Shown here piece by piece: positions 46,270 through 52,146 of a stretch of 64,000 nucleotides of DNA. A model generated the notes under the pieces. It ran no database searches and was not told the DNA's origin. It saw only the letters and a program-made list of their open reading frames with translations. Positions within the stretch are counted from its first letter, which is position 1. Every line of letters starts with the position of its first letter. A program made the translations under genes and the position numbers. The stretch is from an uncultured bacterium (GTDB lineage: Bacteria > Zixibacteria > MSB-5A5 > GN15 > FEB-12): assembly GCA_965372795.1 (NCBI GenBank), contig CBDVDR010000006.1, positions 64,001 through 128,000 of the forward strand. Direction: 5' to 3'.

Positions 46270-47634
46270 ATGGAAATAATAAAAAAAATCAAACTGATTG
46301 TCGACCCTGAACAGATATCTCAACAGTCTGATCAGCTGATGGTTGCATCAAAAGATGAATCAACTCTACCCGGAGTTATGCCGTTAGCAGTTATCTGGCC
46401 CAAAGACAAACAGCAAATTTCTGAAATAATCAAACTATGTGCTGAGACTAATACGCCTATTACCACCAGAGGAGCTGGGAGTGCCCTTGAGGGTTCAACT
46501 ATCCCCAGCGAAAATGGCATTGTTCTTGATGTCAGCCGAATGACTGCTATTCTTGAATACTGGCCTCAGGATTTACAAATTAGGGTGCAACCCGGTTTGA
46601 TCTATGATCACCTTAATGACAAACTCAAACGAGATGGTTTGTTTTTCCCACCCTCGCCGGGTGGCTCGGGAGATGTTGCCTCAATTGGCGGCATGGTATC
46701 TACTAATGCCAGCGGTATTTATTCTGTAAAATATGGTGGGACCAAAGAATATATACTTGAACTTGAAATTGTAACCGGAACCGGAGAAATTCTAAAAGTA
46801 GGCAATCGCGCGATCAAGCGTTCCAGCGGATATAATCTTGTCGAACTAATCACCGGGTCAGAAGGTACTCTGGCAGTTATTACAGCTATCACTTTGAAGC
46901 TCGCTGGACTCCCCGAAGATAAGCTTCAAACCGCATATAAATTTGAAAATGAGATAAACGCTGCCAAAGCTGTCTCGGAGATGCGTCGTTATGGTATTGA
47001 TCTGGCTGCTATTGAATTCCTTGATCGAAGAGTTATGAAAGCCTTAAACCAATTAAAAGATTATAAACTCGAAGAAGTACCATGCTTATTTTTAGAATTC
47101 CATGGACCCAAAGCATCAATTGAGTCCAATAATGAAATGGCTGAATCTATCTGCAAAGAGCATAATGGCACAACTTTAACTCTTGAGGAAGGTCAACGTC
47201 CCTGGGAAATTCGTCATTATGTTACCGAATCAATCAAACATCTGAAACCGGGATTCACAATTATTAGAAATGATGTTGCCTTTCCAATTTCCCATTTGCC
47301 GGATATGGTTGAGTATTGTTATAAATTAGCAGACTCTAATAATATTCCTATCCACACTTTCGGTCATGTTGGTCTGGGGCTCCTCCATGCCTTATTGTTA
47401 GCCGATATGAATGATTCTGACCAATGGAAGCTTGCTATTAAAATAAACGATGAGATCATTAAGAAAACACTCGAATTAGGCGGTACTATCTCAGGAGAAC
47501 ACGGTATCGGAACCGGACACAAAAACCTCTTCAATCTTGAACATGGTTTATCTGTAGATTTAATGCGTAAGATAAAAAAACAATTCGATCCAAATAATAT
47601 TTTAAATCCCGGAAAAATCTTTGATTTAGTTTAA
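46270..47634 (+). CDS. FAD-linked oxidase (GlcD/D-lactate dehydrogenase family)
   Basis: RGAGSALEG, SIGGMVSTNASG, GSEGTL, GTISGEHGIG, DPNNILNPGK. Confidence 0.9.
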   Translation: MEIIKKIKLIVDPEQISQQSDQLMVASKDESTLPGVMPLAVIWPKDKQQISEIIKLCAETNTPITTRGAGSALEGSTIPSENGIVLDVSRMTAILEYWPQDLQIRVQPGLIYDHLNDKLKRDGLFFPPSPGGSGDVASIGGMVSTNASGIYSVKYGGTKEYILELEIVTGTGEILKVGNRAIKRSSGYNLVELITGSEGTLAVITAITLKLAGLPEDKLQTAYKFENEINAAKAVSEMRRYGIDLAAIEFLDRRVMKALNQLKDYKLEEVPCLFLEFHGPKASIESNNEMAESICKEHNGTTLTLEEGQRPWEIRHYVTESIKHLKPGFTIIRNDVAFPISHLPDMVEYCYKLADSNNIPIHTFGHVGLGLLHALLLADMNDSDQWKLAIKINDEIIKKTLELGGTISGEHGIGTGHKNLFNLEHGLSVDLMRKIKKQFDPNNILNPGKIFDLV

Positions 47635-47789
47635 CTTCTCTCACTATCTCAATAAAGTATTGACCGATAATTAGATGGTTATTTGAGGAGTTACACTTTT
47701 AATATTCCAAACTTGACAATTTTTGCTCATTTTGTATAATACTTAGCTAATTGGAACATTTTTTAAAAATAAATTTATAATAAAGTAAT

Positions 47790-48503
47790 ATGAAAACAAA
47801 AAAAAATACAATAATTACATTACTGTTAATTGCTCTTCCGGCAGTATTATTGGCAGCCTCTAAACTTGAAGTAAAAGAAAGTAAGTTCAATTTTGGCTAT
47901 ATTCCGCAAAATTGTAATATTACTCATAATTTCTGGTTTATTTCAGCAGGTGAGGACACTTTAAAAATCAATAAGATAAAAACCGGCTGCTCCTGTGCTG
48001 TGATGCCCCTTGAAAAAGACTGGATTGCCCCTGGTGACAGCATGCAAATTGGAATTCATTGGAAAATAAAACGTGAAGCTGGTGAAGCGGCAAAAAATCC
48101 GGCTATTTATACAAATGCTAAGGCAGATCCTTATCGAATTGGTGTAGCAGGATCCGTTATGAAAAACCCGATGAGCGATATTGATGCTGCCTCGATAAGT
48201 CCTTATATCATAGAATTGGCTAAAGTTGGAAATAAATCCATTGATAGCCTTTCATTTGAGATTACGAATAAATTAGAATATGAAGTTTCAGTCAATATTA
48301 TTGAATCGAATATAGAGCAATGTATTTTAACCCTTCCGGAACTTTTGGGACCATTTGAAGTTTTTACAGCTATGGCTGTTGTTAAACCAGAATTTCTCGA
48401 TCAGGAGTTTACCGGTTCTGTTACAATTGAATTATCGGGACCTAAAGATACAAGAATAACGATTCCGATTAGAAGAAAAATATACAATTCAAGTTCTCAA
48501 TAG
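47790..48503 (+). CDS. Secreted DUF1573-like Ig-fold protein with CxC motif
   Basis: Signal peptide; FNFGYIPQ..HNFW..GEDTLKI..KTGCSC..IAPGDS. Confidence 0.75.
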   Translation: MKTKKNTIITLLLIALPAVLLAASKLEVKESKFNFGYIPQNCNITHNFWFISAGEDTLKINKIKTGCSCAVMPLEKDWIAPGDSMQIGIHWKIKREAGEAAKNPAIYTNAKADPYRIGVAGSVMKNPMSDIDAASISPYIIELAKVGNKSIDSLSFEITNKLEYEVSVNIIESNIEQCILTLPELLGPFEVFTAMAVVKPEFLDQEFTGSVTIELSGPKDTRITIPIRRKIYNSSSQ

Positions 48504-48565
48504 AATTTGACGAAAAAAGAGAAGAAAACGAAAAACATTATTTATATAGAAAGCATATAATAAGA

Positions 48566-49291
48566 ATGAAACGCTTAATTATTGTAACTATTTTAGTTGT
48601 CTTTGTAGCCTTGGCTGCCTTCAGTGCTCCGAGATTATCAATTCAGGAAAGTAGCTTTAATTTCGGTTATGTACCACAGAATTCAAAAATATCTCATGAT
48701 TTTTGGCTGATGTCTACCGGAGATGATACTTTAAAAATTCTCAAAATAATACCTGGCTGAGGATGCACAAAAGCTCCTCTTGAGAAGGAGATACTTGCTG
48801 TCGGTGACAGCACAATATTAGAAATCATATTCTCAACCAAGAAATATAAAAACAGAATCACTAAACGCCCGAGAATCCAGACCAACGAAGGCACACCCGA
48901 TAAAACGGTACAAATTATTGCCCACGTTGTTCAACGTCCTGACTCTACCTATCCTGTTATAATTCAACCTTACAAACTCGACCTGTCCCAATTCACAGAA
49001 AAAGTAAGAGACAAAATAAACTTTAAAATCACAAACGTTTCTGACCAGCCTTTGGATTTATCTTTAATATCATTCTCTGCTAAAATGTTTGAAGTCAAGC
49101 TGCCAAGTTCTGTTGACCCCGGTAAAACAGCTGAAGGTACTCTCAAACTTAAAAAGAGTGCCCTTGATAAATCTTTCGAAAAATCTTTTACGTTTGAAAT
49201 TAACGATGAAAAAAATAGCCGCTTTACTATACCTGTAAAAAGAACTGTTCGCATTACTGCAAACAAAGGGAGCGGCAAGGCTGGAAAATAA
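48566..49291 (+). CDS. DUF1573-like paralog (241 aa) with in-frame TGA; candidate selenoprotein (UGC motif)
   Basis: ORFs 48566-48760 and 49052-49291 are in one frame, joined by open sequence after TGA 48758-48760. The TGA aligns to the first Cys of GCSC in the upstream paralog. Confidence 0.75.
48774..48812 (+). promoter_or_regulatory. Candidate bacterial SECIS hairpin(s)
   Basis: CTCCT-CTTGAGA-AGGAG (48774-48790) and TGCTGTC-GGT-GACAGCA (48796-48812), just 3' of the TGA. Confidence 0.45.
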
Positions 49292-49311
49292 TTCTGGTTT
49301 AATTCAGTTAT

Positions 49312-49341
49312 AAAAAAAGTCGCCGATTGGCGACTTTTTTT
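49312..49341. terminator. Bidirectional terminator
   Basis: AAAAAAAGTCGCC-GATT-GGCGACTTTTTTT between convergent genes. Confidence 0.88.
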
Positions 49342-49354
49342 TTGAAATTTACTT

Positions 49355-50782
49355 TTACTCAATGTCCATTCGTTGTCCCTCGGCAAGATTCTCTTCCCAT
49401 ATTTTACTAAATGGTTCTCCGAAGACATTGGAATGAACTAAACGGAAATCAAAGTTCCCGCTCCAATCCTCGAATACAAACAGTTTTCCTTCAGCAATGG
49501 ATCGATAGTACCAGACAACATACGGATTACCAATCCGAGGAGAGCTGATTTCATCAATTTCTTCATAAGGTCCGTAAGTAAGATAAATTCTACCTTGGTC
49601 AGATTGCCAACCATTGTTCTTTTGGGGGTTGTTTGAGAATAATTGATTTACATAATAAAATCTTTCAATTAACTCAAGACGTGATTCGTTCTCGGGCGTA
49701 TTTTTTTCAGAATCGTGCTCTGCCCAATATTGGTTCAGATAATTATTTTTCCCTTCATCAGTCAACCGATTCAAGGTAGCCATATGCTCAGGATTCAAAA
49801 CATATTTCACTAAATCAATTTTTTGCTTCAAGGAGAATCTATCATAAGGGTCTCCCCCGGCTGCTAATGGCTTGGCTATCTGATCAGGGATCGGTTCAAT
49901 AATTGCAAATGGGATAATGGTAGTATCAACCTGTTTGCTTTGTTTATCTAAAGCAATCATTTGAAAAGCATAAATATTCACCGGCCACCCTTTGATATCA
50001 AACTCTTCCACTATCACTGCTGAAGAACCGATTTTTTCAATTTGACGTTCGCCAAGAAACATAAAGAAACTTGAATCCTGATTCAAGGCCACATACGTCA
50101 GCTGGAATTTTGATGGTTTCTCAGAATTGTAATCCAGATTATACAATTCAGTATAAATGGTTATAGAAGTATCATTAGTTCCATAAATTGATGGCGGGTT
50201 GGGGTAAATACGGTATCCGTTTTTCACCATCTTTGAATTCGTATCCAGACTTTCTCCGACATAGTCAATATTATAGGCCAGATAAATATCACTCAAAGTA
50301 AGTTTTGCTTTATAAATCGGATCGACAATAATCTCGCCGATAAAAAACTCTCCCCGGTTTTTATTGACTACATCAATCACTGTAATTCTGGCAAGAAAAA
50401 TTCCTGGTTTGGCAAGGAGTTGCAAGCGACTGAATATTCTAACATTTTTTTTAGCAGCTTCTTCTTTTGTGGCAGCGACAATTGCAAAATAAGTATATGA
50501 TGAATCAATCGTTTGTCCTAATGTGTCTATTAAATCAACTTGTGCATAAACTCTGGCACTAAGTTTACCTTCGATTTTTTCATCATTGAAAAATTCGAAT
50601 TCATTTCTTTTTAATGCAATCGGAAATTCGAGTAATACAACAGAGTCCATTGACGGATTTGGAAATATTTTTACTGCGGTATAAACATTTATAATTTTTT
50701 CACCCGCGAAAATATTACCTGCAATTAGCAATATTATAAAAAAACAAAAAACACTTTTCGAAATAACCTTAATACTGTTCAC
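49355..50782 (-). CDS. GWxTD domain protein (GWQSD variant)
   Basis: Signal peptide; YW..D....ENE...GWQSDQGRIYLTYGP..VWYY..FVFED. Confidence 0.8.
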   Translation of the reverse strand: MNSIKVISKSVFCFFIILLIAGNIFAGEKIINVYTAVKIFPNPSMDSVVLLEFPIALKRNEFEFFNDEKIEGKLSARVYAQVDLIDTLGQTIDSSYTYFAIVAATKEEAAKKNVRIFSRLQLLAKPGIFLARITVIDVVNKNRGEFFIGEIIVDPIYKAKLTLSDIYLAYNIDYVGESLDTNSKMVKNGYRIYPNPPSIYGTNDTSITIYTELYNLDYNSEKPSKFQLTYVALNQDSSFFMFLGERQIEKIGSSAVIVEEFDIKGWPVNIYAFQMIALDKQSKQVDTTIIPFAIIEPIPDQIAKPLAAGGDPYDRFSLKQKIDLVKYVLNPEHMATLNRLTDEGKNNYLNQYWAEHDSEKNTPENESRLELIERFYYVNQLFSNNPQKNNGWQSDQGRIYLTYGPYEEIDEISSPRIGNPYVVWYYRSIAEGKLFVFEDWSGNFDFRLVHSNVFGEPFSKIWEENLAEGQRMDIE

Positions 50783-50796
50783 ATATCCCTCGTCTT

Positions 50797-52146
50797 TTAA
50801 AAGTCAGGCCTCATATTAAACCCATCATAGGGATATGCCAGCCGATATTCACCATCCTCATTTTCATCAATAAATACAAATTTACGATATCTTCCATCTC
50901 GATAATAATGCCATTCCTGATAAGGTCTTCGATTGGGAGACAGCGGAAAATCTTCAAGTTGATCAGGTTCTCCATACATAATGTATGTTCTTCCACGATC
51001 AGTTTTCCACCCATCCCTCCTCAAATAAGAATACCTTGAGGTAGCATGTCTCACCCGGCGATAGAATTCAGTTTTATATTCATTATCTGATGTTCCGGGT
51101 GTTGGATCCCTTAATTCCCAGAATTCCTTAAATGCCTGGATTCTTAATTTTAAATCTTCAATTTTCTTCATCTCGTCAATTTCGCCATCATTTGCAATAA
51201 AGGATAACTGCTTAAGGACAACATCATAGTCATGTTTGATAAACATTTCAGGGGTCATTTGAATATTAAAAGCTTTATGTTTGGAATCAAATTTCTTCTT
51301 TCGGTTACTTCGAAGTTCGATTTCAAGTTCATAATCCCCGGGACGGAAATCATCAATTACAATATCTCTTAACTGCATTGATCGCGGGTATTCAATCGGT
51401 ACTGTTACACTATCACGATAGATCATTTTACCATATTTATGATCACGGAGAATTGTAATCATTACTGCTTCTTTTACATCTTTTTTCCCCGGATAAATTT
51501 CGACATAAAACAGTAGGTGGTTTTCTCTATTTAAACCGCCATAGATATGGGTAACTGATGGAACAACAGCAATATTCCCTTTATTAAATGGGCTTGTTTC
51601 CGATTGTATTTCTCCGAATGCCTGGGAGAATTCAATTTCAGAAAACTTTGGAGATTTCTTATCATATTTTTTTAAATTAACTTTCAAATCTTTGGTATTA
51701 ACTTTTCGGCTATGTTTATCTCTCAATGTTACAATAATTTTATATTTTCCAGGATCCAAATCAAAATTCATTTGTAAAGTTCTGAAATCAGCCAAAGATT
51801 TTGTTTTGTCGATTGAGTTTACAATAATTGTCTTGGGAATTTTATCTAAAACTACTTCGTTTTTCTTTTTATCTAAGATAGTCAGCTCAACTTCATAATT
51901 CGCTATATACTGATTGTTCTCTTCTTTAAAAGATAAAAAATAATTGTATATCTGATAATAAATTTCAAGGCGAACTTTGTCGGGCTGGTCTGATTTAAAT
52001 ATGGAATAATCAATAGGAATACTTTTTAATCGGATATTGCCTACATCCCCAAATTGAAATAACTCTCTCGATTCAGTTGAAAAAACTGAAATAAGAATTA
52101 TTAAAATTATCGCCGTAAATGTATTATTTATTTTCTTCATATTCAT
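50797..52146 (-). CDS. GWxTD domain protein
   Basis: Signal peptide; FWELRDPTPGTSDNE..GWKTDRGRTYIMYGEPD..EWHY..FVFID. Confidence 0.88.
   Translation of the reverse strand: MNMKKINNTFTAIILIILISVFSTESRELFQFGDVGNIRLKSIPIDYSIFKSDQPDKVRLEIYYQIYNYFLSFKEENNQYIANYEVELTILDKKKNEVVLDKIPKTIIVNSIDKTKSLADFRTLQMNFDLDPGKYKIIVTLRDKHSRKVNTKDLKVNLKKYDKKSPKFSEIEFSQAFGEIQSETSPFNKGNIAVVPSVTHIYGGLNRENHLLFYVEIYPGKKDVKEAVMITILRDHKYGKMIYRDSVTVPIEYPRSMQLRDIVIDDFRPGDYELEIELRSNRKKKFDSKHKAFNIQMTPEMFIKHDYDVVLKQLSFIANDGEIDEMKKIEDLKLRIQAFKEFWELRDPTPGTSDNEYKTEFYRRVRHATSRYSYLRRDGWKTDRGRTYIMYGEPDQLEDFPLSPNRRPYQEWHYYRDGRYRKFVFIDENEDGEYRLAYPYDGFNMRPDF

Follow-up and report, generated by a model that had tools for sequence, protein, structure and literature searches.

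A tandem DUF1573 gene pair with an in-frame UGA codon

The 64,000-nt stretch analyzed here (hereafter, the window; positions 64,001 to 128,000 of contig CBDVDR010000006.1, assembly GCA_965372795.1, from an uncultured bacterium of the phylum Zixibacteria) contains a tandem pair of DUF1573 genes, the second of which is a probable selenoprotein gene that standard annotation splits at an in-frame TGA (Table 1). The genome holding the window (G000) comprises 3.35 Mb and is 98.65% complete. The two genes lie on the same strand, separated by a gap of 62 nt. In the open-reading-frame (ORF) list, the second gene appears as ORF 48566-48760 (+), which encodes 64 amino acids (aa) and is stopped by the TGA at 48758-48760, and the first start codon 3' of this TGA occurs only at 49052. 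Translation with the TGA read as selenocysteine (Sec; U) gives, for 48566-49291 (+), a protein of 241 aa, with the TGA as the sole internal stop and with a TAA terminator at 49289-49291. BLASTP aligns this protein with the 237-aa product of the upstream gene at 77 of 228 identical residues (34%; E 2e-47), with one gap and with collinearity extending to the C-termini (RFTIPVKR / RITIPIRR). The TGA aligns to the first cysteine (Cys) of a C-x-C motif in the upstream paralog (...LKILKIIPG-U-GCTKAPLEK... in the Sec protein; ...LKINKIKTG-C-SCAVMPLEK... in the paralog).

The original prediction, a model's reading of the sequence and its ORF list, held that the ORF track splits a gene, that reading through the TGA yields a 241-aa protein collinear with a 237-aa paralog, that similarity continues to the C-terminus with no further stop or frameshift, that the UGA falls at a conserved Cys column, and that the Sec protein is paired with a Cys version. 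Translation and BLASTP bear out all of these points: the adjoining paralog has C-S-C at the aligned position, and Cys occurs at the same column in other homologues. On this evidence, and on that from related genomes presented below, we conclude that 48566-49291 is, with a probability of about 0.9, one genuine selenoprotein gene, with selenocysteine inserted at the UGA of 48758-48760 through the usual bacterial pathway.

Table 1. Features of the DUF1573 gene pair and its surroundings (window coordinates)
Feature	Position	Strand	Basis
Sigma-70-like promoter, TTGACA-16 nt-TATAAT, ahead of Cys paralog	47713..47740	+	12/12 consensus matches
Cys paralog 5' of the Sec gene, DUF1573 protein of 237 aa with a signal peptide and the motif G-C-S-C (C67, C69)	47790..48503	+	PF07610, 67.7 bits; 34% identity to Sec protein
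Probable selenoprotein gene, 241-aa DUF1573 / immunoglobulin (Ig)-like protein, Sec at residue 65	48566..49291	+	TGA=U translation; Pfam; TGA kept in orthologues; AlphaFold2
Predicted signal peptide MKRLIIVTILVVFVALAAFS (residues 1-20), probably cleaved ahead of APRLSI	48566..48625	+	sequence; modelled helix; orthologues
Domain 1, residues 24-122, predicted DUF1573 / HYDIN-VesB-type Ig-like beta sandwich with U65-G66-C67	48635..48931	+	
In-frame TGA, read as U65, first position of U-G-C	48758..48760	+	aligned to Cys of paralogues; TGA conserved
Candidate Sec insertion sequence (SECIS) hairpin 1 (+13..+38), stem-loop of variable sequence in which one pair covaries; in the window, an outer stem of 3 bp, an inner stem CUCCU/AGGAG and a loop of 7 nt	48771..48796	+	
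Candidate SECIS hairpin 2 (+39..+53), invariant GCUGUC-GGU-GACAGC, codons A78 V79 G80 D81 S82; candidate SelB-binding apex	48797..48811	+	
Domain 2, residues 131-226, predicted Ig-like beta sandwich	48956..49243	+	predicted local distance difference test (pLDDT) 93-98; weak second Pfam stretch, none above threshold
Bidirectional intrinsic-terminator-like hairpin, A7-GTCGCC-GATT-GGCGAC-T9, between convergent genes	49312..49343	.	read from sequence
Convergent GWxTD-domain gene	49355..50782	-	PF20094, 29.8 bits
Second tandem GWxTD-domain gene, convergent to Sec gene	50797..52146	-	

The UGA codon is conserved across the phylum

We searched the read-through protein against 200 related genomes of the phylum (201 including G000). 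A match was found in 199 of the 200 (200 of 201 counting G000), and most of the top rows were flagged as containing one TGA. At the 30 best loci, U occupies the PG-U-GC column in 29, the exception being locus L042 of genome G104, which has Cys; similarity runs 176 residues past the TGA, at 45-72% identity. These results supply what the original prediction had proposed to look for, namely homologues with TGA at the same column and with coding conserved downstream of it. Twenty additional, more distant loci, a biased sample picked from rows flagged for one TGA, all have U at the same column, and one of them holds two Sec genes. The column thus shows the pattern that defines a SelB-dependent selenoprotein gene: Cys in homologues and a conserved in-frame UGA in orthologues.

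The TGA and the sequence that follows it can be described by a 53-nt signature that consists of TGA-GGN-TGC, a spacer of fixed length and GCTGTCGGNGACAG. A search with this pattern, which provides an unbiased count, gave an exact match in 142 of the 201 genomes and in 127 of the 180 of high quality; by taxon, the matches cover 77 of 108 genera and 13 of 19 families. Because the pattern is strict, these counts are lower bounds. The reversed control gave 0 hits in the 201 genomes. The selenoprotein gene is amplified in some lineages: genomes G017 and G127 each carry a tandem array of three Sec forms, spaced at about 0.9-1 kb, and each copy has the invariant hairpin described below.

Among 122 listed full-length sequences, both window proteins counted in, the motif at the column of U65 reads CGC in 92 and CSC in 25, and the column has W in 5; the named homologues in the protein database are from Zixibacteria. 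The five W residues, in PG-W-GC (P0003, P0019, P0030, P0044 and P0107, all full-length public database homologues), stand at the exact position of the TGA and probably reflect Sec codons that gene callers rendered as Trp under a different genetic code, which would make them errors of public annotation. Gene callers are expected to truncate Sec forms, so that Cys dominates among full-length database homologues and the gene looks hidden.

A nonsense mutation or sequencing error at the TGA, leaving a pseudogene or two unrelated ORFs, would be compatible with the splitting of the gene by standard ORF calling and with the preponderance of CGC and CSC among the listed full-length homologues. It is, however, exceedingly improbable. 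The TGA recurs at the same column in nearly all of the best loci, which come from independent assemblies, and the signature recurs across the phylum; there is no start codon between the TGA and 49052, and coding is conserved to the C-terminus; and a systematic assembly error shared by independent genomes at this level of divergence is implausible. The W homologues are read as TGA under another code, and the excess of Cys is that expected from truncation of Sec forms.

The genome encodes selenocysteine machinery and uses UGA as a stop codon

In bacteria, SelA charges tRNA-Sec using selenophosphate from SelD, and SelB carries the charged tRNA to a structure in the mRNA that closely follows the UGA. 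In genome G000, adjacent genes on contig 19 code for SelA (425 bits) and SelB (324 bits), the same contig carries tRNA-Sec (selC; anticodon TCA), and SelD is matched at 389 bits by a gene that carries one in-frame TGA. All four components required for a SelB-dependent selenoprotein gene, selA, selB, selC and selD, are therefore present in this genome, as they should be if the original prediction is correct. TGA terminates 198 of the 1337 ORFs of at least 300 codons in G000, and selA and selB are without internal stops; we conclude from these two observations that TGA is an ordinary stop codon in this genome, with no genome-wide reassignment.

SelA was found in 191 of the 201 genomes, and among them is G104, the genome of the single Cys-form orthologue considered; comparison of the Sec/Cys state with the presence of SelA is accordingly uninformative. 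Five genomes with the TGA signature lack a SelA match at E <= 1e-30 (G045, G109, G021, G115 and G183). In G021 a SelA fragment lies at a contig end, and in G115 and G183 SelB is present. In G045, which is 100% complete by markers, and in G109, neither selA nor selB was found, and these two genomes count against Sec decoding of the signature. Because selA and selB adjoin each other, absence of a single contig is the likely explanation.

These same two genomes, together with the five public homologues recorded with W, are what would favor a second alternative, that the UGA is recoded without selenocysteine, whether by reassignment, by near-cognate read-through with Trp or Cys, or by regulated termination that yields a 64-aa peptide and some full-length protein. 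The use of TGA as terminator of long ORFs, the uninterrupted selA and selB genes, the full Sec machinery of G000 and the near-universal presence of SelA in the phylum all argue against recoding of this kind, and a UGA at a conserved Cys, with hairpins tied to the TGA forms, is the pattern expected of Sec decoding. We consider the alternative very improbable, though not to the degree of a mutation or sequencing error.

Two hairpins 3' of the UGA are specific to Sec forms

Two hairpins follow the TGA (Table 1). The inner stem of hairpin 1, CUCCU/AGGAG at 48774-48778 / 48786-48790, begins at the 14th nt after the TGA; hairpin 2 has 6 bp, or 7 bp counting U48796-A48812, in which case it starts at the 36th nt. 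The original prediction had placed two hairpins at 14 and 36 nt past the TGA, and both are found there. The 60-nt stretch has a minimum free energy of -18.3 kcal/mol (z = -2.46; 3 of 200 shuffles fold as well). The fold of the single sequence is thus only mildly unusual; it is the comparative evidence that puts the combination of TGA and hairpins far beyond chance.

When the codons of 50 Sec genes are aligned, the third positions have an entropy of 0 at A78, V79 and D81, of 0.33 at S82 and of 0.77 at G80, as compared to a gene mean of 1.62 bits. The consensus for hairpin 2 in these genes is GCUGUC-GG(U/C/G)-GACAG(C/U), with a triloop, and all six pairs can form in 50 of 50 Sec genes (100% paired) vs. 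2 of 30 Cys forms of the same loci. The remaining Cys forms have the same or similar residues (A-P/V-G-D-S) specified by varied codons. Codon choice is thus frozen at A78, V79 and D81 in Sec genes and varied in Cys forms, indicating that it is the RNA that is constrained, in conjunction with the TGA.

For hairpin 1, sequence and register vary among lineages, and the loop is without a constant motif. In the common register, 84.6% of cells are paired, as compared to 30-58% for slid controls, and pair 18-35 covaries (UA 26, AU 8, GU 4, GC 3, other or unpaired 9). The covariation score exceeds those of all 500 shuffles, a standard that related sequences can beat without structure. Folded alone, the hairpin 1 stretch has a mean energy of -9.53 kcal/mol in the 50 Sec genes vs. 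-3.74 kcal/mol in the 30 Cys forms, and reaches -4 kcal/mol or below in 50 of 50 Sec genes vs. 13 of 30 Cys forms (Mann-Whitney p 5e-10, a value inflated by relatedness). Frozen synonymous sites, structure specific to Sec forms and one covarying pair together identify a stem-loop 3' of the UGA under selection at the RNA level, as is expected of a SECIS, and agree with the 3' hairpin on which the original prediction partly turned.

Other selenoprotein genes in the same genome

When G000 was scanned under strict rules, which required a GGU or GGC triloop hairpin after the TGA, 4 matches were obtained, 2 of them convincing: selD and the DUF1573 gene. A wider scan gave 819 candidates, of which 38 remained after a hairpin filter and 4 were judged real selenoprotein genes, two of these being checked against Pfam; the genome thus has at least four selenoprotein genes, as the hairpin filter may miss some. 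The selD gene (G000:C4:204174-205094 (+), locus L003) is itself a selenoprotein gene, with motif SCAG-U-ASK and an 8-bp hairpin (UCGCCAAA-GGU-UUUGGCGA) whose stem starts from +15 and whose GGU triloop is at +23. The gene at G000:C1:118267-119139 (-) (locus L063) encodes a 290-aa protein with an in-frame TGA in W-U-T-W-C and a 9-bp hairpin with loop GGUC at +26; the protein has a hydrophobic N-terminus (and is probably exported), a thioredoxin fold (Pfam Thioredoxin, 58.3 bits on read-through) and a TPR/YfiO-like tail. The gene at G000:C16:37408-38460 (+) (locus L064) encodes a DUF3179 protein of 350 aa (209.7 bits) whose N-terminus resembles a signal sequence; its in-frame TGA falls within W-U-P-L-C, and a hairpin of 7 bp follows at +24. 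Two reviews (PMC9312934, PMC13188914) list DUF3179, too, among the selenoprotein families. Three of the four selenoproteins seen in G000 appear to be exported.

Assignment of the SelB-binding hairpin

The standard bacterial SECIS search model has an apical loop 16-37 nt after the UGA, with G among the first two loop bases. Several observations weigh against a straightforward assignment of the two hairpins as a SECIS. Neither hairpin appears to fit the standard model on both spacing and loop: the spacing of hairpin 1 is within the model and its loop in the window, CUUGAGA, has no G at positions 1-2, and hairpin 2 has its GGU loop 42 nt from the UGA, farther than the model allows. The selD, thioredoxin-like and DUF3179 genes have their loops at +23 to +26, where hairpin 1 lies and hairpin 2 does not. 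Hairpin 2 is also a DNA palindrome, and, because it never varies, covariation cannot support it. Finally, an alternative long-range helix, in which alignment columns 7-12 pair with columns 46-52 (UGCACC after the UGA with GGUGACA), is 92% paired; one of its pairs has 2 compensatory cells but also 7 mismatches, and we rank it below the two-hairpin structure. An Rfam scan of 48700-48900 at E <= 10 gave no SECIS family and three chance-level matches (NBR2, Ysr209 and SprD).

On balance we lean toward hairpin 2 as the SelB-binding apex, with hairpin 1 acting as a folded spacer that would bring hairpin 2 about as near to the UGA as the single hairpin of selD. Hairpin 2 is favored because selD has a GGU triloop on a stem from +15, and because, with hairpin 1 folded out, hairpin 2 would lie effectively at +13, on the geometry that we presume. 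The reverse assignment, in which hairpin 1 is the SelB-binding SECIS and hairpin 2 is an accessory element (a pause site or recoding enhancer) or is conserved for some other reason, is the less probable one, with an appreciable chance of being correct. The loop of hairpin 1, at about +21..+27, falls within the usual spacing and near those of the other three selenoprotein genes, and hairpin 1 has the covarying pair and is Sec-form specific; its sequence and register differ between lineages, however, and its loop motif is not constant, whereas hairpin 2 has a stem and a loop GG that are invariant phylum-wide, shares its GGU triloop with selD, and so resembles a protein-recognized element.

If hairpin 2 is indeed the SelB site, a broader proposal can be formulated, which we regard as doubtful: that a two-part SECIS outside the standard model, composed of an invariant 15-nt GGU-triloop SelB site and a covarying spacer, serves an envelope Ig-fold protein, commonly present as tandem Sec and Cys copies, that acts in selenol redox chemistry or in chalcogen or metal handling, and that this protein is a main reason why the phylum keeps its Sec machinery. 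A two-part SECIS outside the standard search model would, if real, help to explain why the gene has stayed hidden.

The product is predicted to be an exported two-domain Ig-fold protein

The Sec protein matches PF07610 (DUF1573) at 79.6 bits (cut-off 26.1), over residues 25-121 and model positions 2-98 of 98, and thus is a member of this family; it also matches PF22544 (HYDIN/VesB Ig-like) at 67.1 bits, and the 237-aa paralog likewise matches HYDIN/VesB Ig-like. Signal-peptide cleavage is predicted to occur before A21, because the signal sequences of orthologues finish in AxA followed by APRLTI. An AlphaFold2 model, built with 122 sequences, has a pLDDT of 93.8 and a predicted template-modelling score of 0.86, and consists of an N-terminal helix (residues 2-16) and two beta sandwiches, with U65-G66-C67 placed in a loop after strand 56-62. 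These results support a product that is exported by means of a signal peptide and that would fold into two Ig-like beta sandwiches, the first of which carries U-G-C in a loop; the proposal of an exported Ig-fold protein in the original prediction is upheld by the signal peptide and by Pfam, AlphaFold2 and Foldseek.

Possible roles of the U-x-C site

C67 is invariant and C65 nearly invariant in the 122 homologues. A conserved C-x-C loop in which Sec can take the place of the first Cys points to a probable reactive site, not a structural disulfide. According to the mechanism that we propose, the UGA would be decoded by Sec-tRNA made by means of SelA and SelD and delivered by SelB to the two-hairpin mRNA structure, and the U-x-C pair so formed would be the working site of the protein in the cell envelope.

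Analogies for the role of such a site are provided by CXC redox motifs, by the SoxY sulfur carrier and by Ig-like periplasmic metal chaperones. By analogy with the first, U-x-C may be a selenenylsulfide-forming redox centre in the envelope, a role to which we give a little under an even chance. Alternatively, and more tentatively, U-x-C may bind a soft metal (Cu(I), Hg, Cd or Zn) or a chalcogen in the periplasm, such that the protein would be a chaperone, buffer or carrier without redox cycling. The existence of periplasmic Ig-like metal chaperones and of SoxY is consistent with a binding role, as is His44, which is invariant in the 50 Sec genes, and several of the families adjacent to DUF1573 in the reviews' tables are metal-related (for example mercuric transport, cation ATPase, YHS and CobW-like). 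Against it, there are no metal-resistance or metal-transport genes among the neighbors, and no named metal-binding protein stood out among the Foldseek matches. A third role, the covalent carriage of sulfur or selenium species, is unlikely. For none of these roles does gene context offer help, which counts against a functional interpretation: the neighboring genes, at this locus and at the 50 loci compared, give no functional hint, and the literature found on DUF1573, selenoprotein reviews included, yielded no functional information on DUF1573 proteins.

Changes between the Sec and Cys states within the family

A quick tree included 79 of the 80 DUF1573 genes found, the omitted one being shorter than 200 aa and cut by the locus end. 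In this tree, 16 genes form a Cys-only clade (Shimodaira-Hasegawa-like approximate likelihood-ratio support 99) that contains the window's upstream paralog, and the 50 Sec genes fall in a group of 61, within which 11 Cys forms are nested. Well-supported branches force at least 6 Sec/Cys state changes. G000 also has, on contig 28, a Cys form 60% identical to the Sec protein (C28:4136-4834), which may be a selenium-independent backup.

Two loci, L042 (G104) and L050 (G155), which supply the 2 of 30 Cys forms able to form hairpin 2, have TGC at the Sec column, retain both downstream hairpins and are very close to Sec forms in the tree; they look like recent Sec-to-Cys converts with a fossil SECIS. 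At L050 the Cys copy stands beside a nearly identical Sec copy.

Organization of the locus

A promoter scan of 47600-49420 gave 8 sites, as compared to 6.7 expected from shuffles; the TTGACA-16-TATAAT sequence ahead of the Cys paralog is the one perfect site among them, and is to be taken as a consensus match only. Cys paralog and Sec gene probably form one transcript from this one promoter. The terminator-like hairpin at 49312-49343 was missed by our scan, perhaps because its stem was extended into the flanking A and T runs. A GWxTD homologue occupies the same convergent downstream position at 43 of 50 loci examined across the phylum, a conserved gene order that need not imply a functional link. 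On the 5' side, the pair is flanked by a peptidase C1-like gene and a gene for an oxidase linked to flavin adenine dinucleotide.

Significance

The analysis indicates that a gene split by standard annotation is very probably a real, strongly conserved selenoprotein gene. For a family listed since 2007, it provides a phylum-wide data set, comprising 142 signature genomes among 201, tandem Sec and Cys copies, and apparent recent converts that retain the hairpins. The 53-nt signature can be used for correction of annotation in genomes of the phylum; the two-hairpin element offers a natural test case for SelB recognition outside model organisms; and an exported Ig-fold U-x-C protein would be a tractable target for study of the role of selenium in the cell envelope.

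Comparison with known systems

The predicted structure can be compared with ASH / MSP / PapD-like folds. Foldseek matches (E 1.6e-12 to about 1e-6) comprise ASH / HYDIN-type domains of ciliary central-apparatus proteins, CEP192 SPD-2, 2qsv from Porphyromonas gingivalis, and PapD-like chaperones, and the likeness lies in the two tandem beta-sandwich domains. The difference is that TM-scores over the whole model are only 0.24-0.39 and that there is no sequence relative in the PDB (0 matches at E <= 0.01 in a search with the 122-sequence profile). We know of no C-x-C or U-x-C site in any of the ASH / PapD-like matches.

With bacterial SECIS elements of the E. coli fdhF type, as sought by bSECISearch, the RNA element shares a stem-loop in coding sequence 3' of the UGA, a G (GGU) in the apical loop, and a distribution mainly in Sec forms. 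It differs in having two abutting hairpins, in the distance of 42 nt between UGA and GGU loop, and in the variable loop of the hairpin that stands at the usual distance.

Sec and Cys isoenzymes are kept in one genome in the case of the Methanococcus hydrogenases. G000 resembles such systems in keeping a Sec form, a 60%-identical Cys form and the 34%-identical adjoining Cys form, but differs in that the adjoining Cys paralog is not an isoform and instead comes from an old, separate, Cys-only clade.

The closest known relative is the OS_HP2 / DUF1573 selenoprotein family. OS_HP2 is named in excerpts of the original report among six new selenoprotein families from worm-symbiont metagenomes, where it was first described in deltaproteobacterial symbionts (Zhang and Gladyshev 2007, PMC1976440). 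A table in the available part of a GOS study of 2008 (PMC2398784) gives OS_HP2 as pfam07610 with motif UxC and 2 Sec sequences, and has 354 in the next column, which we take to be Cys homologues; excerpts of the two reviews cited above (PMC9312934, PMC13188914) list a DUF1573 selenoprotein with motif UGC. The original prediction had left it undecided whether a protein of this kind had been described, and these excerpts answer that a DUF1573 protein with UxC/UGC is a listed selenoprotein family, OS_HP2. The window's Sec protein agrees with the definition in these excerpts: it has the same Pfam domain (pfam07610), the same UxC/UGC motif, as PG-U-G-C, and abundant Cys homologues, with identity of the column judged from the motif.

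Against inclusion in the family as curated by NCBIfam (model NF041425, 'OS_HP2 family (seleno)protein') stands the Sec protein's score of 78.5 bits over model positions 1-94 of 98, below the curated cut-off of 100. A six-frame search of G000 with NF041425 gave 58.6 bits at best and 55.7 bits for the Sec gene, none above the cut-off. The two differ further in that the named homologues here are Zixibacteria, as against the deltaproteobacterial symbionts of OS_HP2, and in that the protein here has a second Ig-like domain, is accompanied by Cys paralogs in tandem and is conserved across the phylum, features that go unmentioned in the excerpted OS_HP2 accounts. In the parts available of literature on DUF1573 and on selenocysteine in Zixibacteria, the supplements of which may list members, there is no account of this protein in the phylum, of tandem Cys partners or of the two-hairpin signal. 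By its sequence, we place the Sec gene in a separate lineage of the known OS_HP2 / DUF1573 kind. The kind of system is not new; what is new is the family member, its phylum-wide conservation, the invariant hairpin and the paralog structure.

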